This document shows, piece after piece, positions 10,347 to 29,559 of a stretch of DNA of 62,023 nucleotides. Below the pieces are notes generated by a model. That model searched no databases, had not been told where the DNA came from, and was given only the letters and a program-made list of their open reading frames with translations. The DNA is from a virus: IMG/VR virus record IMGVR_UViG_3300001687_001193; one strand, given 5' to 3'. The translations under genes and the position numbers were made by a program. How positions within the stretch are numbered: the first letter of the stretch is position 1; each line of letters starts with the position of its first letter.

Positions 10347-10564
10347 ACAACATATTCTTCAAAATAGGTGACATCGTGATACATAACACTCCGTTTTCTA
10401 CAAAATATGATCCAGGAGATGGCGTAGAAGGGGTTGTTATAGCTATGGTGTGGGGTGACATGCCTAAAGTTCGATGGAGCGACGGGAATGTAGAAACGTA
10501 TTGCCAGAGTGATTTAGAACTTATAGAAAGAAAGAGAGGCGACAGTGGCGAGGAAGAAAAGTAA
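10343..10564 (+). CDS. hypothetical small protein (KIGDIV-type N-terminus)
   Basis: N-terminal KIGDIVIH resembles the N-termini of the paralog set at 20940, 30076, 52328 and 58465. Confidence 0.35.
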   Translation: MNNIFFKIGDIVIHNTPFSTKYDPGDGVEGVVIAMVWGDMPKVRWSDGNVETYCQSDLELIERKRGDSGEEEK

Positions 10565-11564
10565 AAAGCCCGATTATTATGGACTGTTAGAGGTCTCACC
10601 TAGAGCCAGTAAAGAGGTAATAAAAGCCGCTTTTAAGGCCCTGATGGGCAAGTACCATCCAGACCACCACAAGACCGATAGAGTTGCTAAATCATTAAAC
10701 GAAGCGTATAGAGTCCTAATGAACAGCAAATCCCGTGCCGAATATGATGAGGAACGCGAGAATATAGAAGGGAAAATAATAGGCGACTATAGAGTACTCG
10801 AACTGATTGCGGAAGGCGGCTTTGGGAAAACCTATATTGGCGAGCAAATGTTAGTAGGAGAAAAGGTGTGTATTAAACATGCCTTGAGTGTTTCACCTCA
10901 AGACGAGGAAATATTGCTAGAAGAAACAAAGGCGGTGTGGGATCTAAGACATTACGCCATCCCAGCTATGAGGAATATCATTAAACTAGACGACGGAAGC
11001 TTAGCATTAATAATGAGCTATATACCTGGCCCGACATTGGAGCAGATGATAGAGCGAAACAAGAAGATCGATCCAGAGACTGTCTGTTGGATAACACAGC
11101 GAGTACTTAACGTCTTGATGTATTTACATTACCACGGTGTCATTCATGGAGATGTGAAGCCACAAAATATTATCATACAGCCCGAGTCACATATGGTAGT
11201 TCTCGTCGACTATGGCTTGTCTCTAATTAGACCTAAAAAGGACTCAAGTAGCAAAGGGTATACCCCATTCTTTGCGCCTCCAGAGCAGATTAAAGGATTT
11301 ACGCTGTTGCCGGGCTCCGATCTGTATTCTTTAGGTATGACGATGATTTACGCCCTGGGCGGCGATATTCAGAAAAAAGAGGTTCCATCGACGGTGCCTG
11401 CCCCAGTCTGTTCCTTCATAAAGAAGTTAATAGCATATAACGTTTTGAATAGACCCGATTGGGAGAAAGAGAATCTACTGGAAACGATACAAGAAGTCAG
11501 AATAGAAGCATTTGGTAGGGATTGTTCTTTTGGAAAAGGCATCCCTGGATTCACGAAAAAGTAA
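10545..11564 (+). CDS. J-domain (DnaJ-like) fused to a Ser/Thr protein-kinase-like domain
   Basis: GTG start after AGAGAGG. N-terminal YYGLLEV...KYHPDHH carries the HPD J-domain motif. Kinase motifs follow: AEGGFGKTY (Gly loop), VCIKH (VAIK), HGDVKPQNI (catalytic loop, HGD in place of HRD) and DYG (DFG). Confidence 0.65.
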   Translation: MARKKSKKPDYYGLLEVSPRASKEVIKAAFKALMGKYHPDHHKTDRVAKSLNEAYRVLMNSKSRAEYDEERENIEGKIIGDYRVLELIAEGGFGKTYIGEQMLVGEKVCIKHALSVSPQDEEILLEETKAVWDLRHYAIPAMRNIIKLDDGSLALIMSYIPGPTLEQMIERNKKIDPETVCWITQRVLNVLMYLHYHGVIHGDVKPQNIIIQPESHMVVLVDYGLSLIRPKKDSSSKGYTPFFAPPEQIKGFTLLPGSDLYSLGMTMIYALGGDIQKKEVPSTVPAPVCSFIKKLIAYNVLNRPDWEKENLLETIQEVRIEAFGRDCSFGKGIPGFTKK

Positions 11565-11578
11565 GAAGGAGAAAGAAA

Positions 11579-12553
11579 ATGTCAGAAACTGCCGATTTCG
11601 ACCCTGGTCATTGGAGAGGACACGATTTCAAGTCTGCTCGCAGAGCATATGATGTTCACGTCGACCGTAGCTACGACGATGCCGTTAAAGCTGGCAAATC
11701 TGTTAAGGACATGGTGCCAGGCGTTATTAAGACTAACAGTCCGGCGCCGTTGGTTATTCTGTGTGATGTTACCGGATCTATGGGCGAATGGCCAGCTACT
11801 ATCTTTTCGAAGCTGCCATACCTGGAACTGGAAGCTCAAGAATACCTTGGCGACAAGATGGAAATTTGCTGGGGAGCAATTGGCGACTACACTTGCGACA
11901 AATATCCACTACAGATTAGAAAGTTTACGAAGGGCGTCAAACTAAAGGACGAGTTAAAAGAGTTGATCGTCGAAGGTGGTGGCGGCGGTGGTGCCAGGGA
12001 AAGCTATGAGATGGCCGGTCTCTATTGCGCTAGGAACATTGAGATGCCGAAGGCTCTAAAGCCGATACTCATCATTATAGGTGATGAAGGATTTTACGAG
12101 ACTATTAACAAGTCAGACGCTAAGAAATACGCGCTGGTAAGCCTGCAGTCTAGGGTAAGTGCCAAAGAGGTATTTGCGGAGCTGCAAACAAAATTTTCCG
12201 TATATGTCGTCAGAAAGCCTTATGGTTACTTTAGGGGCGACAAAACCAGCGATGCTGACAAGACGATTCATGCCCAATGGGCAGAAGTCGTAGGAGATGA
12301 TAGGATTGTTATGCTGCCAGATGCTGGAAGAGTGGTGGACGTCATCTTTGGGTTGCTGGCGAGAGAGACTGATAGAGTCGAGTATTTCGAAGATGAGCTA
12401 AAAGATAGGCAGAAACCGGGTCAAGTTAAGACAGTGATGAAGGCTCTTGAAACGATACACGGCCTTGCTTCTGATAGCAAAAAGCTCTTAAGATCTGGTG
12501 CGTCGAAGATGCACAAGAAAAGTGATGGCAAGAAAACCAAATCGCTCCTATAG
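11579..12553 (+). CDS. von Willebrand factor A (vWA) domain protein
   Basis: AAGGAG RBS; MIDAS-like LCDVTGSMG; poly-Gly run. Confidence 0.55.
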   Translation: MSETADFDPGHWRGHDFKSARRAYDVHVDRSYDDAVKAGKSVKDMVPGVIKTNSPAPLVILCDVTGSMGEWPATIFSKLPYLELEAQEYLGDKMEICWGAIGDYTCDKYPLQIRKFTKGVKLKDELKELIVEGGGGGGARESYEMAGLYCARNIEMPKALKPILIIIGDEGFYETINKSDAKKYALVSLQSRVSAKEVFAELQTKFSVYVVRKPYGYFRGDKTSDADKTIHAQWAEVVGDDRIVMLPDAGRVVDVIFGLLARETDRVEYFEDELKDRQKPGQVKTVMKALETIHGLASDSKKLLRSGASKMHKKSDGKKTKSLL

Positions 12554-12569
12554 AAAGGTAAGGGATACC

Positions 12570-13550
12570 ATGGCCGAAAAGGCAACGAGTGGACTTGAAT
12601 TGTCAGCAACTTTGCTACCGACGTTTCCACATTTTAACGCATTTGTGGACGATCCTAGACTTGGTTTTATTAGAATGAATAGTGCCCAACTAGAAGGCGA
12701 TGAGTTAAATCATGAACTAGCGGAAGCTCATAGATTTCAAGATGTTAAGCCCTTATATTTCGATATTAAGGGCAGACAACTTCGCGTTACCAAGTCTTAT
12801 CCTCTGCCGGATAGGTTGGAATTAGACTTGAATCACGACGTCTACGTAGAGACCCCAACCACGGTCCTTTTTAAAGGAGGTGCCGACGGCTGTATACTCG
12901 AAAAAGTAGAAGGGAATCATCTTGTTTTCCGTGGCGGCCCGGAGTGGATGGTAGTTGAAGGAGAGTCATTACACATTCGGCATCCTAGCCTAGAAGTTGG
13001 TGATCCAATTTTTACGGAAATAGAAGTAGATAAGGTAGAAAAAGCACGTAAAGCCGGATTTGATAAATTTTTCCTGTCTTATGTAGAAGAGCAGAGAGAC
13101 ATAAATCTCGTACGGGAACTCATCGGCGACTCGATGTTGATGCTTAAAATCGAGAATAAAAAAGGGCTAGCGTTCGTAGAGAATCATTTCAAGAAAGAAG
13201 ATAATTTATGTCTGGTCGCAGCAATGGGTGATCTATATGTAGAAGTTGAAAGACCGCATCATATTTTATCTGCTCTCAAGTTAATCATTGGAAAAGATTC
13301 AAGAGCCGTGGCAGGTTCGCGGATGTTGCTTTCTATATCTGAAGAGCCGGTTCCGTCGGCAGCAGATTTTATGCAGTTGGCGTGGCTGTATGAAATAGGA
13401 TATCGTAGGATGATGCTCTGCGATGAGATCTGTTTGAAAGAAGAATATTTCACTACGGCGGTTAATGTTTTCGACCATTTCAGAAGGTCATATATAAAAG
13501 TAGAGCCTCCTAAAAAGAAAGGGTGGCTTACTAGAATTTTAAACAGTTAG
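12570..13550 (+). CDS. pyruvate-kinase-like / PEP-utilising TIM-barrel protein (putative)
   Basis: LKIENKKGLAFVENHF...AAMGDLYVEVE...MLLSISEEPVPSAADFMQLAWLYEIGYRRMMLCDE parallels the KIEN...ARGDLGVE...MLESM..PTRAE..DVANA...MLSGE barrel pattern of pyruvate kinase. Confidence 0.4.
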   Translation: MAEKATSGLELSATLLPTFPHFNAFVDDPRLGFIRMNSAQLEGDELNHELAEAHRFQDVKPLYFDIKGRQLRVTKSYPLPDRLELDLNHDVYVETPTTVLFKGGADGCILEKVEGNHLVFRGGPEWMVVEGESLHIRHPSLEVGDPIFTEIEVDKVEKARKAGFDKFFLSYVEEQRDINLVRELIGDSMLMLKIENKKGLAFVENHFKKEDNLCLVAAMGDLYVEVERPHHILSALKLIIGKDSRAVAGSRMLLSISEEPVPSAADFMQLAWLYEIGYRRMMLCDEICLKEEYFTTAVNVFDHFRRSYIKVEPPKKKGWLTRILNS

Positions 13551-13936: not shown

Positions 13937-14059
13937 AGAACGGGACGCTGCCAACAATTTCCATTTCAATCATGGACTCGGCAGAAGTAAACGTTTAGCC
14001 AAAGCTAGGGGTAGTGCCCTTAGGTGTATCTCGGAGCTGATAGAATATTTAGAGGAAGA

Positions 14060-14893
14060 ATGAAAGACTACGAAACAAAATTGAAAGAGAAACAAGATTA
14101 TGGGACAGGTGCTACCAGGGATGCTGCCAAAGGTAAAGGTCGTTTCGACCTTATCCCTGATCTTGCATTGGCGAGGCTGGCGGGAGTGTATGAAAGAGGG
14201 GCACTCAATCATGGCGCTAGAAATTGGGAGCAAGGCCTCCCCATTTCGAGGCTTATAGATAGTGCGACTAGACACCTAGTACAATACAAAATGAGTAAAT
14301 ATATGCCAGAATTGGACGATGAAGACCATTTGGCGCACTCTGCTTGGAATATACTTGCTATCATACATATGGAAGAAATGATAAAACGCGGTAGTCTACA
14401 AAAAGAGTTAGATGACTTGCCGCGTTATGAAAGGCTGCAACAAAAGAAAGAGTGTGTCGAACTAAACAGTCAAGATATAATTAAGATAGAAAACGAACTG
14501 GGTCCACTTAGCGTCGATATCCATACAGATCAAAGAACCGTAAAGATACATCATCCTGCATCCGGCCACAGCGTTACTAAGTTTCGAAGCCCCGATCAAA
14601 GACACAACTACTCTTGTGCTTTAAAAGAATTGAAAGACATCTTGGACCACACAGAAGAGACCCGGCGAGAGGAAAAGAAAAAAAAGATAGAGGAATACTT
14701 TGAAGAAAATGCGCCCGTGAAGCCGACTGACTTCGACTTTGGTTTTGGCGACGAAGAAGAGGAAAAATTTGTGCCACATGAAAAAGCAGCTAGATCTGTA
14801 TCGTTAGATCGCGTGGCCAAACGTGGAAGTAAACATGTATGTAAAGGCGGACGTGGGTGTGGTCGCCATGCAGAGAAATTAAGTAAAAAATAA
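14060..14893 (+). CDS. dATP/dGTP pyrophosphohydrolase-like N-terminal domain protein (putative) with Lys/Glu-rich C-terminus
   Basis: AGAGGAAG RBS; GRFDLIPDLALARLAGVYERGALNHGARNWEQG resembles the phage dATP/dGTP diphosphohydrolase N-domain signature (recalled from memory, not a searched match). Confidence 0.35.
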   Translation: MKDYETKLKEKQDYGTGATRDAAKGKGRFDLIPDLALARLAGVYERGALNHGARNWEQGLPISRLIDSATRHLVQYKMSKYMPELDDEDHLAHSAWNILAIIHMEEMIKRGSLQKELDDLPRYERLQQKKECVELNSQDIIKIENELGPLSVDIHTDQRTVKIHHPASGHSVTKFRSPDQRHNYSCALKELKDILDHTEETRREEKKKKIEEYFEENAPVKPTDFDFGFGDEEEEKFVPHEKAARSVSLDRVAKRGSKHVCKGGRGCGRHAEKLSKK

Positions 14894-15153: not shown

Positions 15154-15195
15154 TTCCTTGGATGTTAAATCCAAAGGTCATGAGAGAGGTGTAAT

Positions 15196-16926
15196 ATGTC
15201 TAAGTTAAATATGAATAAAACCAAAACAATAGACGAGTCCGTGAGGAGTCGTATAGATGCCACGATTAATAAAGCTGGCGGATTAGCGTTTGAATTCGAG
15301 GATCCAGCAGAGTACTTGTTGGCGACCGTAGGGTCTGCTATGTTCGTAGAGCCACGATATTATGCAGACGAAGTTGACCTTGAGTCACTAAAAAAGGGCG
15401 AGTTTAATCATAAGGACTTGGACGAACAAGCTATAAAAATCATAGACGCGTGTATTTTGGTGGCCGAAGGTGAAAACCCAAGGGATCTGTTGGCTTTGGC
15501 GCATTGGGCTCGTACAGAGTTGCATATGCGCACAACCCCGCAAATTATGTTGGCGGTGGCTGCCAAGCATGTGAATACCAAGCCTTTTGTGCGAAAATAC
15601 GTACCACTAATTGCCCAACGTGCGGACGAAGTAAAACAAATTGTCGGAGCATACGAACATTTGTTCGGATGGAAGAAATTCCCTGCTTCTCTGAAGAAAG
15701 GGATTGCTGATCGCATGTCTACGATGAGCGAATACGAGTTGCTGAAATACAACACTAAGGGACACCCTTCTTTCGCCGATATACTGCGGTTTTGTGATCG
15801 CAGGCACAACTACCCGCTTTCAAAGCCGCTCAGAGAATATATTCTGAGGGGAGAAGTTATAGATCCAGAAGCCACTCCAATAATTGCTGCACGAAAGAGA
15901 CTTACGTCTTTGAGCGAATGGAACGATGATGTCCCATTTCTAGCTAAACAAGCTGGGGCGACATGGGAAGTTTTGGTATCTCAGTTTGGTAGCAAACAAG
16001 AAGTATGGGAAGCAGTGATTCCTTTGATGGGGTATATGGCTTTGCTGAGAAATATCGCCAACTTTTTGGACGCCGATATTTCTATGGAGAAAGTGCGTTT
16101 TGTAGTCGATAGGATCTCGGATCCAGAAAACGTCGCGAAATCAAAGCAACTACCGTTCAGATTTATGTCTGCTTACCGTATGCTCCATCCAGACCCAATG
16201 ACTTTCTATAGAACGCGCGATAGAAGGAATGTGGCTCGAAACAGAGATGCATGGAATAGGGCGAAGCTTCAAGCTTTTACAGAGGGCATAGAAGCTGCTA
16301 TGGATGCATCTATAGTGAATGTCCCGGTTCTTCCAGGTGTAACTGTTGTGGCAGCGGATAATTCAGGTAGCATGCAGGCACCCATCTCTGAGAAATCTGT
16401 TATGACTGTACGTGATGCCGCTAACGCACTGTGTGCTATAGTACATAAGCGCTGCGAAGAATCCTATGTATGTTCATTCGGCGATAATGCAATCTGGCCG
16501 CCTTTGACTAAACGCAATTCTGTATTGACAAATATGGAGAAAATTGCCACTCATGAAGCCAGACTTCGCGGACATTCCACTAATGCGTGGAAGGTTATAG
16601 AATATATGATAGATCATAATATAATTGCTGATAGAGTGATTGTATTATCTGATATGCAATGTTATGATTCTACTGGTTGGCGAGGCGGCGGCAATAGTGC
16701 TGCTGCACTTTTGGTAAAATATCGTAGAAACATCAAGAATGATTGTTACGCACATTTTTTCGATCTCCAAGGCTACGGCACAGCTCAGTCTAAGACTGAA
16801 TATGACAATATAGTTGGTGGCTTTAGTGAGAAAATTCTCAGCCAAATTCTGGTATTCGAGAATGCTGAGTCATCGGCCGGCGACAAGCCGCTTCCAACTA
16901 TGGAATATATTAGGGAAAACTTCTAA
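15196..16926 (+). CDS. Ro60-like RNA-binding protein (TROVE domain + C-terminal vWA)
   Basis: GAGAGAGGTG RBS. MALLRNIANF parallels the Ro60 TALLRNLGKM segment, and QLPFRFMSAYRML parallels Ro60 RIHPFHILVALETY. C-terminal VVAADNSGSM matches the Ro60 vWA MIDAS; length 576 aa. Confidence 0.6.
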   Translation: MSKLNMNKTKTIDESVRSRIDATINKAGGLAFEFEDPAEYLLATVGSAMFVEPRYYADEVDLESLKKGEFNHKDLDEQAIKIIDACILVAEGENPRDLLALAHWARTELHMRTTPQIMLAVAAKHVNTKPFVRKYVPLIAQRADEVKQIVGAYEHLFGWKKFPASLKKGIADRMSTMSEYELLKYNTKGHPSFADILRFCDRRHNYPLSKPLREYILRGEVIDPEATPIIAARKRLTSLSEWNDDVPFLAKQAGATWEVLVSQFGSKQEVWEAVIPLMGYMALLRNIANFLDADISMEKVRFVVDRISDPENVAKSKQLPFRFMSAYRMLHPDPMTFYRTRDRRNVARNRDAWNRAKLQAFTEGIEAAMDASIVNVPVLPGVTVVAADNSGSMQAPISEKSVMTVRDAANALCAIVHKRCEESYVCSFGDNAIWPPLTKRNSVLTNMEKIATHEARLRGHSTNAWKVIEYMIDHNIIADRVIVLSDMQCYDSTGWRGGGNSAAALLVKYRRNIKNDCYAHFFDLQGYGTAQSKTEYDNIVGGFSEKILSQILVFENAESSAGDKPLPTMEYIRENF

Positions 16927-16929
16927 GAT

Positions 16930-17043
16930 ATGACACGGCTGGGGTTATAAAGATCAGAACTACTCCAGCATGGCAGCTTGAAGAATGATCTGGACGAGGC
17001 TTGGCATATAGCACTCACCTTATCCCAGCCGTGTCATTTTTTT
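16930..17043 (+). ncRNA. candidate structured ncRNA (Y-RNA-like) immediately 3' of the Ro60-like gene
   Basis: A 14-bp terminal stem, ATGACACGGCTGGG (16930-16943) paired with CCCAGCCGTGTCAT (17024-17037), encloses internal hairpins and is followed by T7. It starts 4 nt after the Ro60-like stop. Confidence 0.35.
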
Positions 17044-17115
17044 CTAGATAAATCTATCAATAAGATAACATATTATTTGAGTCGCCGTGACTCGTCGTAT
17101 TTAAGCGAGGTACAT

Positions 17116-17262
17116 ATGTCTTTTTACAAGTATCTGAGAAATTCGCAAAAACCGGCGCATGGACTATCAGCCCGTGGTTGGGGATTTGTGCGCGAAGCCT
17201 CCTTGAATACAATTCCAGCAGGCAGTGTCTGCGATAAGGAGGCGAGGCCACCAGGCGGCTAG
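17116..17262 (+). CDS. possible small basic protein (48 aa), low confidence
   Basis: GAGGT RBS 4 nt before ATG; lies between two terminator-like hairpins. Confidence 0.2.
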   Translation: MSFYKYLRNSQKPAHGLSARGWGFVREASLNTIPAGSVCDKEARPPGG

Positions 17263-17287
17263 GCAATTTACACAAATCACTATGCAT

Positions 17288-17320
17288 GCCGCCTTGGGGA
17301 ACCCCAACGGCGGCTTTTTT
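17288..17320 (+). terminator. rho-independent terminator
   Basis: GCCGCCTTGGGGAACCCCAACGGCGGC stem-loop followed by TTTTTT. Confidence 0.55.
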
Positions 17321-17344
17321 ATTGCTGTTAAGAAAGAAGAAACA

Positions 17345-17749
17345 ATGGCACAGCTTGAAAATCAGACTATAGCAAGGATGCCGGTTAGGGAAACTTCTCG
17401 TATAAGGTTGCTGCTTAACGGAAATTGGCATACAGAAATTGATAGGATGTGGGGCAGGAAGCGCGTGAAGCGACATATATTCCGTATAGAGAGTACTGAT
17501 GGCACGCATACGTGGTTCGAATGTAACGAACAGTTGGCCGCAAACATCTTGGCTAATATAGAGCTTTTTATAGTGAAAAACCGCGTAGATAGAAAGAAGC
17601 TTGAGAAACTGACCATGGTAATTAGCCGTTCCGATAACGGCGAAGGTATGGCGACCGTGTGCGAGGACAGTAATGACCGTGTCCCAAGGGTCGGTAAGTT
17701 GGCCAGATTTGTAGGATGGTTGAAAGGTCTCGCGAAGATAAGAGACTGA
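17345..17749 (+). CDS. hypothetical protein
   Basis: Internal ATG of ORF 17225, just downstream of the terminator. Confidence 0.4.
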   Translation: MAQLENQTIARMPVRETSRIRLLLNGNWHTEIDRMWGRKRVKRHIFRIESTDGTHTWFECNEQLAANILANIELFIVKNRVDRKKLEKLTMVISRSDNGEGMATVCEDSNDRVPRVGKLARFVGWLKGLAKIRD

Positions 17750-17813
17750 AGCTTTGATGGCGAAGCAGTGGGCTCTTACCCCACAGAATCCGGTTCGATT
17801 CCGGGCAGTCTCA
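17742..17813 (+). tRNA. tRNA-Lys(CTT)
   Basis: Acceptor GAGACTG/CAGTCTC, D GCTT/AAGC, anticodon stem GTGGG/CCCAC, loop CTCTTAC, T-arm TCCGG-TTCGATT-CCGGG. Confidence 0.65.
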
Positions 17814-17830
17814 CATATGGTGAGGTGCAA

Positions 17831-17990: not shown

Positions 17991-18041
17991 GTCTAAACGA
18001 AAACAGGAAGACGAACCCGGCAAATACGATTGCCTCCTTCA

Positions 18042-18125
18042 TCTAATGGTATGATACCGGACTTTTAATCCGGCGTCCCGTAAGGGCATTGGGGGTTCGA
18101 TTCCCTCAGGGGGCACTGGGAGATT
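18042..18125 (+). tRNA. tRNA-Lys(TTT)-like with a 17-nt variable region and 3-bp D stem (class-II-like architecture)
   Basis: Acceptor GCCTCCT/AGGGGGC (1 GU), anticodon stem CCGGA/TCCGG, loop CTTTTAA, variable CGTCCCGTAAGGGCATT, T-arm GGGGG-TTCGATT-CCCTC, A73; hand-folded. Confidence 0.45.
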
Positions 18126-25621: not shown

Positions 25622-26392
25622 ATGAGGGTATGGATTCTTGGAACTGGTGATGCCTTTTCCGAACAACGGTATAATGCGTCTTTTATAGTGCAAAGCAAAC
25701 ATGATAATCGTTTCCATGATCCTTCAGATGGATTTTTCAACTTGGCCGTAGAATGTCCACATCCCTACAGGAAAATACTTTTAGATTGCGAGATGAAAAG
25801 AGGCATTGCTAACGGCCCGAAACTAGAAGATATAGACCATTTCCTCATTAGTCATCTTCACGGAGATCATATGAATGGTCTAGAAGATGTGATTTTTTAT
25901 AAGCGGTTCGTGCAGGGTGTATATCCTCACGTTTACATGTCTCGTTGGGACTTGGATCAATTATGGAAGCATAGATTGAAATGTGCTATGGGCACCACTT
26001 ATGATGGCCAATGGCATCTCGATGTAGGGGAAGATTTTTTATATTATAAACATAGCTTGTCAGGTCCACAGTGCCATATAGGACCATTCGTTGTAGAAAC
26101 CAGAGTAACGCAGCATCATATCCCTGCAATTGCTATGTTGATTAAAGAAGGGGATAAATCTGTCGCTTTTTCATCTGATACTGTGTTCGACCCCTCTTTA
26201 ATTGATTGGATGAATCAAGCAGATCTTATTATACATGAAGCAACCGGTGGTCTTGGTCATACACGCTATGAAAGCTTAGTAACTTTATCGAAGAAAATTA
26301 AGGATAAGATGGTATTGATTCATTACCCTGACAGTTTTAATCGTGATACAGAGATCAGGAAGTTAAGAGAAGGCGAAGTACTTGAAGTATAA
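25622..26392 (+). CDS. metallo-beta-lactamase-fold hydrolase, RNase Z (tRNA 3'-processing) -like
   Basis: N-terminal ILGTGDAF, a LLDCE block, and ISHLHGDHMNGL (HxHxDH) match the short-form RNase Z / ElaC pattern. Confidence 0.5.
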   Translation: MRVWILGTGDAFSEQRYNASFIVQSKHDNRFHDPSDGFFNLAVECPHPYRKILLDCEMKRGIANGPKLEDIDHFLISHLHGDHMNGLEDVIFYKRFVQGVYPHVYMSRWDLDQLWKHRLKCAMGTTYDGQWHLDVGEDFLYYKHSLSGPQCHIGPFVVETRVTQHHIPAIAMLIKEGDKSVAFSSDTVFDPSLIDWMNQADLIIHEATGGLGHTRYESLVTLSKKIKDKMVLIHYPDSFNRDTEIRKLREGEVLEV

Positions 26393-28217: not shown

Positions 28218-28356
28218 AAGAGTTGCGCGACGGAGATTTTGCCGATGATTGGAAAAATCCAGCAACTATAAAGAGAAGACTAAATAAAGAAATTAAAGAG
28301 TTGGAAAACTCTTGATATAGAGCTTGTTCAATTTTAAGAACAGGATGGAGGATACG

Positions 28357-29559
28357 ATGGCTGAGAAATTCGTAAGAGACAAGCCCCATGTCAATGTGGG
28401 GACGATTGGTCATATTGACCATGGAAAAACTACCCTGACAGCTGCCATCACGAAAGTTTTGGCACTGGAAGGTGGTGCCAAGTTTACATCGTTTGACGAG
28501 ATCGACAAGGCACCAGAAGAGAAAGAGCGTGGCATTACGATTGCTACGGCACATGTTGAGTATACGACAGAGAAAAGGCACTACGCACATGTTGACTGCC
28601 CAGGACACGCCGACTATATTAAGAATATGATTACAGGAGCGGCCCAGATGGACGGAGCAATTCTGGTTGTAAGTGCTCCAGATGGTCCAATGCCGCAGAC
28701 AAGAGAACACATCCTGTTGGCAAGACAGGTAGATGTACCAGCAATGGTAGTTTTCCTCAATAAAGTAGATATGGTAGACGAGGAAGACGTAGAGTTGATA
28801 GATTTGGTGGAATTAGAATTACAGGAGCTACTTACCAAGTATCAGTTTCCTGGGGAAGAAATTCCGATTATACGCGGATCTGCTTTACAGGCATTGGAAT
28901 CTAATAGCGACGACCTTGGTGCCCCTGAGTATCAGTGCATTAGGGAATTGGTGCGGGCGGTTGACGATTATATCCCAGAGCCAGAGCGAGATACAGACAA
29001 GGATTTTCTCCTTCCTGTCGAGAACGTATATACCATCGGTGGTAGAGGGACGGTCGTTACCGGAAAGGTAGAGCGTGGCAAGATCAAGGTGAACGATCCT
29101 GTAGAAATAGTGGGGATTAGAGAAACCAATCGCACTGTATGTACCGGTGTACAAATGTTCTATAAGGATATGGATGAAGGAATAGCGGGCGATAGTATCG
29201 GTGCTCTGCTGCGTGGAGTAAAAAGAGACGAGGTAGAGAGAGGAATGGTGTTGGCCGCTCCGGGCTCTATAACGCCTCATAGGAAATTTAAGGCAGAAGT
29301 TTACGTCTTGAGGAAAGAAGAAGGCGGGAGACACACTCCGTTCTTCAGCGGTTACAGGCCACAGTTCTATTGCAGGACCACTGATGTGATGGGTGAGATC
29401 AAACTCGACGAAGGCATCGAGATGGTAATGCCAGGCGACAATGTTAATGTCAACGTAGAACTGCACGTACCTATAGCCGCAGAAAAAGGATTGCATTTTG
29501 CGGTGAGAGAAGGAGGTAAAACCGTAGGTGCAGGAATGGTAACGGAGATTATCGAATGA
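28357..29559 (+). CDS. tuf: translation elongation factor Tu (EF-Tu) homolog
   Basis: GGAGGA RBS 4 nt before ATG at 28357. [32 protein letters not shown] is near-identical to bacterial EF-Tu, including the G1-G4 GTPase motifs (DCPGH, NKVD) and the C-terminal beta-barrel domains. Confidence 0.9.

Follow-up and report, generated by a model that had tools for sequence, protein, structure and literature searches.

Since 2014, phages have been known to carry Ro60 genes together with Y RNA partners (PMC4201824), and a YrlA partner is thought to go with nearly all bacterial and phage Ro60s. YrlA has been described in cluster C mycobacteriophages, CcrColossus and Bacillus phage G (PMC4201824), the Thermus phage phiLo has Yrl1 and Yrl2, and for one phage Ro60-Yrl complex a solved structure is available (PMC12135203). 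Jumbo phages, too, have been noted to encode TROVE proteins (PMC7824862). These phage proteins share a TROVE ring and a vWA domain with a MIDAS (metal ion-dependent adhesion site), and their genes often lie among tRNA genes. We analyzed here 62,023 nucleotides (nt) of the IMG/VR record IMGVR_UViG_3300001687_001193 (the whole stretch is hereafter called the window), in which a first-pass annotation had read positions 15196-17320 as a Ro60 gene followed by a 114-nt Y-RNA-like ligand. As phage Ro60s and their Y RNAs are already described, that headline brings nothing new, and the part of it that concerns the RNA is probably incorrect. Our analysis favors, with reasonable confidence, another organization, in which the interval consists of two separate units: a Ro60 gene with its own terminator, and a regulatory module at 17046-17320 containing a switch.

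The 576-amino-acid (aa) product of the first gene is Ro60, as had been proposed from its TROVE and vWA domains, and Pfam, PHROG, PDB and fold matches agree on this assignment. The profile search gave a match to TROVE (PF05731) at E 2.2e-35 (123 bits for a cut-off of 23), whereas vWA_Ro60 (PF25045) reached 27.5 bits, 0.2 below its cut-off of 27.7. PHROG 850, annotated as "RNA-binding protein," matched at 1e-37. The best PDB sequence match was the Ro60 of Thermus phage phiLo (9KOP/9L5Y, 4e-17), human RO60 being the second. With an AlphaFold (AF2) model built from 33 homologs (predicted local distance difference test, pLDDT, of 81.6), the top 13 Foldseek matches were all Ro60 proteins from phage, human, Xenopus and Deinococcus, among them 9KOP (1e-18), 9NEP, 2I91, 1YVP and 2NVO, with 500-600 aligned columns; isolated vWA domains came next. 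The C-terminal MIDAS was also borne out, its five residues D388, S390, S392, T462 and D486 (DxSxS...T...D) being unchanged in 33/33 homologs. By family membership, this Ro60 most likely has a ring-type RNA-binding role. It would bind ends and helices of misfolded or damaged non-coding RNA, probably tRNA or rRNA of the phage or its host, and would perhaps recruit host exonucleases.

Homologs of this protein passing E 1e-5 numbered 1670. A Ro60 homolog is encoded in 261 deposited phage records, all of them less than 30% identical to the window protein, and a comparison of 15196-17400 with 50,697 phage records by DNA similarity gave no match. An identical Ro60 protein is encoded on a 460-kb metagenomic contig. 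The window Ro60 is a new, divergent member of the known phage Ro60 family, with phiLo Ro60 as the closest solved structure, and it belongs to a clade of very large, tRNA-rich phages. For comparison we used 15 distinct loci of this one phage clade (labelled L0xx), whose Ro60 proteins are 58-86% identical to that of the window. Their common gene order is a dGTP_diPhyd_N-domain gene, Ro60, a small open reading frame (sORF), a gene of 125-140 aa and tRNA-Lys.

Judged from its sequence, the 114-nt structure behind Ro60 is not a Y-RNA homolog. Scanned with the Rfam Y_RNA and YrlA covariance models, as had been suggested for this region, positions 16850-17420 gave no match at E<=10, and the whole window gave none at E<=2. 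Nor was there any match at E<=1 in 11 close-clade loci with 1.5-3 kb flanks, save for one artefact. This YrlA match (L002 6099-6167) spans two adjacent tRNA-Lys genes, and Chen et al. (PMC4201824) have warned of YrlA-model artefacts that bridge tRNAs. The YrlA model (RF02553) did give 30-46 bits in the positive controls, Mycobacterium phage Cali, CcrColossus, Streptomyces phage BRock and two IMG/VR contigs, and in all five loci the match lay a few hundred nt upstream of Ro60. Rfam scans of about 40 Ro60 loci at the gathering threshold are uninformative for YrlA, because genuine phage YrlAs score under the family cut-off of 69 bits; the YrlA scans were thus repeated at an E-value threshold. The distant IMG/VR contigs that served as positive controls thereby carry unannotated phage Y RNAs, L004 2582-2684 (46 bits) and L007 2460-2599 (39.5 bits), both matches being full-length and sub-threshold, 300-500 nt upstream of Ro60.

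Sequence motifs point in the same direction. Bacterial Y RNAs present the Ro-binding motif GNCGAAN0-1G near their 5′ end (PMC4201824), and phiLo Yrl1/2 were identified by a CGAA-bearing bulge (PMC12135203). When 16927-17045 was read directly, GNCGAAN0-1G was absent; the closest string to GNCGAA was GGACGAGG, which is not kept in L049 or L050. Neither a phiLo-type CGAA-bearing bulge nor a tRNA-like domain with T and D arms was found in the hairpin. The metazoan Y_RNA model (RF00019) was silent as well and the GGUCCGA bulged helix is missing, as the first-pass annotation had itself remarked, and the closing helix has no bulge. Two other candidates for a Ro motif were rejected, CGCGAAG at 17188-17194 (inside the sORF), a near-match to GNCGAAG that is not conserved in L049, and GGCGAAG in the loop of the 5′ hairpin of L051, which is not common to other loci. 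Thus, in contrast to the described phage systems, where the detected partners lie upstream, the 11 clade members show no YrlA or Yrl RNA with CGAA or a tRNA-like domain, and this Ro60 clade seems to be without recognizable YrlA within 1.5-3 kb flanks. Instead, it has conserved hairpins at the 5′ and 3′ ends of the Ro60 message. The Rsr/YrlA/RtcBA operon of bacteria such as Salmonella (PMC4201824, PMC7790460) resembles this locus in that Ro60 lies amid tRNA and translation genes (here at least 24 tRNAs, an EF-Tu homolog and tRNA-Lys). It differs by its YrlA, of which none was found here, and by RtcB/RtcA, which are not among the adjacent genes scanned (these match dGTP_diPhyd_N and PK domains), the rest of the window not having been scanned for them.

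The T7-ended hairpin that had been described behind Ro60 is real. Its first base lies 3 nt beyond the stop codon, and RNAfold gives 16927-17045 a minimum free energy (MFE) of -45 kcal/mol with z = -5.7, 0/200 shuffles being as stable; it is among the strongest short-range inverted repeats of the 62 kb. The closing helix stands too, but with RNAfold it has 16 base pairs (bp) rather than the 14 (16930-16943/17024-17037) given before, and it forms a perfect duplex. Such a hairpin lies directly 3′ of the Ro60 stop in every close relative but L016 and L055, with homologous closing helices such as GTGCGGCTGTGG, GCGTGGCCACAG and CACGGCTGGGG, and a U-run follows it in most loci. As MAFFT misplaced these variable-length hairpins, we set the stems in register manually according to their predicted helices, a procedure that artificially raises the share of paired cells. 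In the resulting 12-locus alignment, 97% of cells were paired, compared to 27-42% in slid controls, and all 14 pairs were altered on both sides (46 cells; 0/500 shuffles equal). Two-sided changes with pairing maintained in 12 loci indicate that selection preserves the pairing rather than the sequence. Rho-independent terminators look like this as well, with a GC-rich helix and then a U-run placed immediately behind a stop codon, and with pairing kept while the sequence drifts. In CcrColossus, an annotated terminator stands straight behind the TROVE gene, its YrlA matches being upstream. We consider this hairpin, with its GC-rich helix of 14-16 bp and its U-run, as most likely the intrinsic terminator of the Ro60 gene, a prediction from sequence. 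A simple terminator scanner made no call at 16930-17043, because 76 nt separate the two arms. The stem does not belong to a repeated element family, since its sequence has no second copy in the window and near-matches are as frequent as expected by chance.

The part enclosed by the helix, the region in which Y RNAs have their conserved modules, behaves quite differently from the helix. In most relatives the whole element is a plain hairpin of 35-45 nt. The loop has 6-9 nt in L019, L061, L053, L060 and L062, and 20-27 nt in L013, L014/L084 and L020; only in L049, L050 and the window (76 nt) is there an apical part of 55-76 nt with unrelated internal hairpins, and these three apical sequences are mutually unalignable. 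Compared to L049, whose Ro60 is 86% identical, the hairpin arms are 85-95% identical and the apical part 40%, with 35 gap columns, which makes it the least conserved segment of the locus; the corresponding values are 77% for the last 300 nt of Ro60, 86% for the non-coding stretch between the box described below and the sORF start, and 88% for the sORF. The 114-nt structure would thus have arisen when the terminator loop was expanded by a fast-evolving insertion in this lineage.

A divergent Y-RNA-like ligand, released from or transcribed with the Ro60 mRNA and offering Ro60 its helix and U-tail, would explain several of these observations. The hairpin adjoins Ro60 and shares its strand, an arrangement known from bacterial rsr-yrl operons (PMC4201824), its size and layout match the generic description of a Y RNA (80-130 nt, a terminal 5′/3′ stem and internal loops), its fold is significant with a helix under selection for pairing, and no other recognizable Y RNA is near Ro60 in the clade. 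A further argument comes from substrate recognition. In misfolded RNAs, Ro60 rings bind ends of this kind, where a helix adjoins a single-stranded 3′ U-tail, and PDB entries 2I91 and 9NEP are among the fold matches of the window Ro60. Nevertheless, the covariance models are silent on the hairpin, yet true phage YrlAs score, and it is devoid of GNCGAA, GGUCCGA, a bulge in the closing helix and tRNA-like arms. The helix keeps its pairing and not its sequence, whereas Ro60 reads specific bases. The size and layout in question are those of the window, while 8/14 relatives have a plain hairpin with a 5-9-nt loop and L016 and L055 have no element at all; the apical domain, which is not kept, is the fastest-evolving part of the locus. 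Finally, the phage Y RNAs that were detected lie upstream of Ro60, not behind it. We therefore regard a ligand of this type as unlikely, and retain a terminator with an expanded loop.

A second conserved hairpin lies ahead of Ro60, in its 5′ untranslated region (UTR). It begins 3 nt past the upstream stop codon, ends 18 nt before the Ro60 ATG, and is present as one copy at the same position in 15/15 close-clade loci. Pairing was found in 97.8% of cells (slid controls, 20-61%), with 4/6 pairs altered on both sides (15 cells; 0/500 shuffles equal). Every locus has a bulged nucleotide on the 3′ side, followed by GGTCA and the Shine-Dalgarno (SD) sequence. With its TTCC/GGTCA flanks the hairpin is single in each locus, and the bare structural pattern occurs at chance rate. 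It could be a translational operator, a processing site or possibly a Ro60-binding site.

Taken with the 3′ stem, this hairpin opens another explanation, namely that the structured ends of the Ro60 message are autoregulatory or stability elements in cis, with Ro60 or a nuclease binding the 5′ hairpin and/or the 3′ stem and termination being secondary. The covariation of the 5′ hairpin in 15/15 loci, its invariant one-nt bulge beside the SD, the recognition of bulged helices by Ro60 proteins (PMC12135203), and a 3′ helix much longer than termination needs are in favor of it. Against it, binding of Ro60 to the mRNA ends is conjectural; the 5′ element has just about 22 nt, and it may equally well be a palindrome at the DNA level, a site of processing or an element of translational coupling. 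Moreover, selection at the RNA level is not proven for it, because no G-U intermediates are seen. This explanation is improbable to our mind, if slightly less so than the Y-RNA-like ligand. The conserved, covarying hairpins at both ends of the Ro60 message could be assayed for protein binding at little cost. With a well-populated Ro60 clade of very large phages seemingly without YrlA, one may ask how, if at all, Ro60 is gated or tethered in these phages.

Beyond the Ro60 terminator, our preferred reading places a second unit, which starts with the ATCTATCAATA box. This box is kept in 13/15 distinct loci, with a -10-like hexamer 6-12 nt farther on, although the surrounding intergenic sequence of the relatives cannot be aligned. 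It occurs only once in the 62 kb, which speaks for a locus-specific element, and we discarded the possibility of a general phage promoter. The separation of the two units is visible in L084, where an inserted 272-aa gene separates the hairpin from the box/sORF module: Ro60 keeps its hairpin, the module is intact 900 nt away, and the box moves with the sORF and not with Ro60. This gene, of unknown family, occupies L084 3340-4158, its insertion point falling precisely between hairpin and ATCTATCAATA box (it is also found in L014, downstream of 4840), and looks like a mobile gene that landed between a terminator and the next promoter.

The first-pass annotation had seen no ORF after the Ro60 stop codon. 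This holds up to 17115, but positions 17116-17262 contain a conserved sORF of 48 codons preceded by an SD, so that the absence of translation claimed for this segment is incorrect. Fourteen divergent loci have such an open frame behind an SD, with 34-53 codons and frame-preserving indels, and MSxxRxTxQ...GWGFVR..SL...PAGK.DNKET.PPGG as the peptide consensus. When related pairs are compared, the differences on codon positions 1/2/3 number 85/64/103, which fits coding, and 11 copies have been called as proteins in public assemblies, all in this clade. We consider 17116-17262 as a coding sORF, whose translation is predicted. Homolog searches with the sORF and with the 134-aa protein encoded downstream (p134) found clade members only, and no functional annotation. 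Two longer frames were rejected as spurious upstream extensions, a 94-aa TTG ORF at 16978-17262 of the sORF and a 174-aa GTG ORF at 17225-17749 of p134.

The second terminator that had been reported downstream is present as well (Table 1), and its helix is 91.3% paired over 14 loci, with 4 pairs altered on both sides and a covariation of 0.306 compared to 0.168 in shuffles (0/500). The end of the sORF, CCAGGCGGC, repeats the consensus 3′ arm of this terminator (the 3′ arm of the window is AACGGCGGC); both are complementary to the 5′ arm GCCGCCTGG (GCCGCCTKG). The alternative helix between the sORF end and the 5′ arm is 88.9% paired over 14 loci (slid controls, 21-51%), with 3 pairs altered on both sides (0/500 shuffles). 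In the nascent RNA before the 3′ arm it is the MFE structure in 15/15 loci, at -13 to -22 kcal/mol; the terminator energies across loci, -14 to -24 kcal/mol, are near those of the anti-terminator, and the alternative helix persists in the full-length fold in five loci. A generic three-part scanner found a switch at this site only. The exact switch pattern had 21 matches in IMG/VR, of which only two were in contigs carrying this Ro60 clade; the other 19 were rejected as chance matches inside GC-rich coding sequence.

One could object that none of this is regulatory. The apical part of the Ro60 hairpin would be neutral junk or the remnant of a small insertion, and the complementarity between sORF and terminator a by-product of selection for a PPGG peptide. 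Such an account fits the apical parts of the window, L049 and L050, which cannot be aligned with each other, and the C-terminal PPGG, which is kept at the amino-acid level. It does not fit individual changes in the switch. At the sORF end of L062, CCA has become TCA (Ser), and both terminator arms are altered to match, the 5′ arm by G to A and the 3′ arm by C to T. L049 has a synonymous change (CCA to CCG), for which only the 5′ arm compensates, by T to C. The terminators of L019 and L061 leave CCTGG of the 5′ arm unpaired, yet it is retained and pairs with the sORF end. Also, the terminator stem is kept in sequence across loci with unalignable spacers, which is beyond any peptide constraint. 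Of all the alternatives weighed here, we give this one the least credit.

These features suggest that 17046-17320 is a leader-peptide-style attenuation region upstream of an OB-fold-like gene and two tRNA-Lys genes. Concerning the direction of control and the signal, we infer the following scheme. Pairing of the 5′ arm with the 3′ arm would lead to termination, and its pairing with the sORF end CCAGGCGGC would prevent it. A ribosome on the final codons or on the stop codon would hide the anti-terminator strand and let the terminator form; without a ribosome, or with one stalled about 5 or more codons upstream, the strand would be free and read-through into the OB-fold-like gene and tRNA-Lys favored. 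PPG is an EF-P-dependent stall motif (EF-P, elongation factor P), and the PPG ending may lengthen the occupancy of the sORF end by the ribosome.

The scheme resembles the trp, his, pyrBI and tna attenuators in its short ORF with an SD, its mutually exclusive helices of similar energy and the decisive position of the ribosome; with TnaC-type peptides, the sORF shares a conserved Trp and a Pro-rich C-terminus at the stop. Unlike these systems, it is phage-borne, the very end of the ORF is the anti-terminator, there are three segments instead of four, a run of regulatory codons is missing (1-3 Lys), the targets are an OB-fold-like gene and tRNA-Lys, and it is predicted from sequence. If true, an sORF with a bistable terminator would be a rare case of leader-peptide attenuation in a phage.

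The signal itself may involve lysine. In 13/14 sORFs, a Lys codon AAG at -5 and/or AAA at -8/-9 from the Pro codon that opens the strand would be a candidate stall site. The number of such codons is small (only 1-3) and the genomes are related, and we consider an attenuator sensing Lys-tRNA as possible but doubtful. The switch being directly upstream of tRNA-Lys genes, a link with translation stress and the supply of phage tRNA is testable. A broader scenario would join both units into a self-contained tRNA-damage response of giant phages. Ro60 would use the bulged 5′ hairpin and the 3′ stem with its U-tail, the ends of its own mRNA, in place of a Y RNA, and ribosomes stalling at Lys codons, for example when an anticodon nuclease attacks the host tRNA-Lys, would cause transcription of the OB-fold RNA-binding protein and of tRNA-Lys (CUU/UUU). 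We judge this combination about as unlikely as the Y-RNA-like ligand.

Several points weigh against our division of the interval into a terminated Ro60 gene and a separate switch. Termination at 17043, transcription starting near 17080 and a translated sORF are predictions. A branched hairpin of 108 nt is unusual for an intrinsic terminator: unlike the 3-8-nt loops of Rho-independent terminators, it encloses 76 nt with two internal hairpins, and two relatives, L053 and L060, have no clear U-run. With this size and these missing U-runs, the helix could serve to stabilize the 3′ end, for processing or for binding a protein. On the 3′ side of their expanded loops, six loci (L049, L050, L013, L014, L020, and the window within 16947-17019) share a CCCRCC/CCACC motif, the rest of the loops being unrelated. 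Also, vertebrate Y RNAs combine a conserved stem with variable loops, so that loop variability alone cannot exclude binding by Ro60, and the Y-RNA search covered 62 kb of a genome of roughly 460 kb. Since its motif hardly varies, the anti-terminator shows covariation in few events, and the hand registration mentioned above favors high pairing values for the Ro60 stem. Finally, the tRNA-Lys synteny is not independent evidence, since all loci come from one phage clade.

Table 1. Features of the Ro60 gene and of the unit that follows it (positions in the window).
Feature	Position	Strand	Description
Bulged 5′-UTR hairpin	15156..15177	+	CC-TTGGAT-GTTAA-ATCCAA-A-GG; conserved, covarying
Ro60 ortholog	15196..16926	+	576 aa; TROVE HEAT-repeat ring and C-terminal vWA with MIDAS
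Long-stem hairpin and T7	16930..17043	+	16-bp closing helix 16930-16945/17022-17037; two non-conserved internal hairpins; T7 17037-17043; probable intrinsic terminator of Ro60
Box and -10-like hexamer	17052..17076	+	ATCTATCAATA 17052-17062, 8 nt, then TATTAT 17071-17076; probable promoter/operator of the next unit (predicted function)
Small 5′-leader hairpin	17078..17094	+	TGAGTCGCCGTGACTCG; only in the window and its two closest relatives
sORF	17116..17262	+	48 codons, MSFYKYLRNSQKPAHGLSARGWGFVREASLNTIPAGSVCDKEARPPGG then stop; SD GAGG 17107-17110; Lys AAG 17236-17238
Anti-terminator strand	17251..17259	+	CCAGGCGGC; P-G-G, the three codons before the sORF stop; complementary to the 5′ arm of the terminator
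Intrinsic terminator	17288..17320	+	GCCGCCTTGGGG-AA-CCCCAACGGCGGC and T6; hairpin 17288-17314, T6 17315-17320; -20.8 kcal/mol
p134	17345..17749	+	Conserved 134-aa protein (MAQLENQ...); clade-restricted, OB-fold-like model; end overlaps the tRNA-Lys(CUU) start by 8 nt
tRNA-Lys(CUU)	17742..17814	+	First tRNA after the switch
tRNA-Lys(UUU)	18032-18116		Unusually long, 85 nt

The genes that follow the switch are shared within the clade. In the window as in 7 related loci, tRNA-Lys(CUU) is the first downstream tRNA; it is followed by tRNA-Lys(UUU) in the window, L049, L050 and L002. Among the other tRNAs of the window, one at 5295-5431 (54.5 bits with Rfam) was missed by ARAGORN. Its acceptor stem, D arm and T arm are normal, and its anticodon loop has an insertion of about 63 nt that folds as D-arm-like and T-arm-like hairpins (TTAGGTTCGAGCCCTAA), with -56 kcal/mol and z -4.3 for the fold. 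It may be an intron or a nested tRNA-like element.

Some other genes of the window are worth mentioning. A protein with a dATP/dGTP diphosphohydrolase N-domain is encoded at 14024-14893, and its gene is always just upstream of Ro60 in the clade. Farther upstream are a pyruvate-kinase-barrel-like protein (12498-13550) and a fusion of a DnaJ domain with a protein kinase (10545-11561). On the other side of the locus, we found a metallo-beta-lactamase-fold protein with a sub-threshold match to Anti-Pycsar Apyc1 (25622-26389), and the EF-Tu homolog mentioned above, which is full-length (28324-29556).

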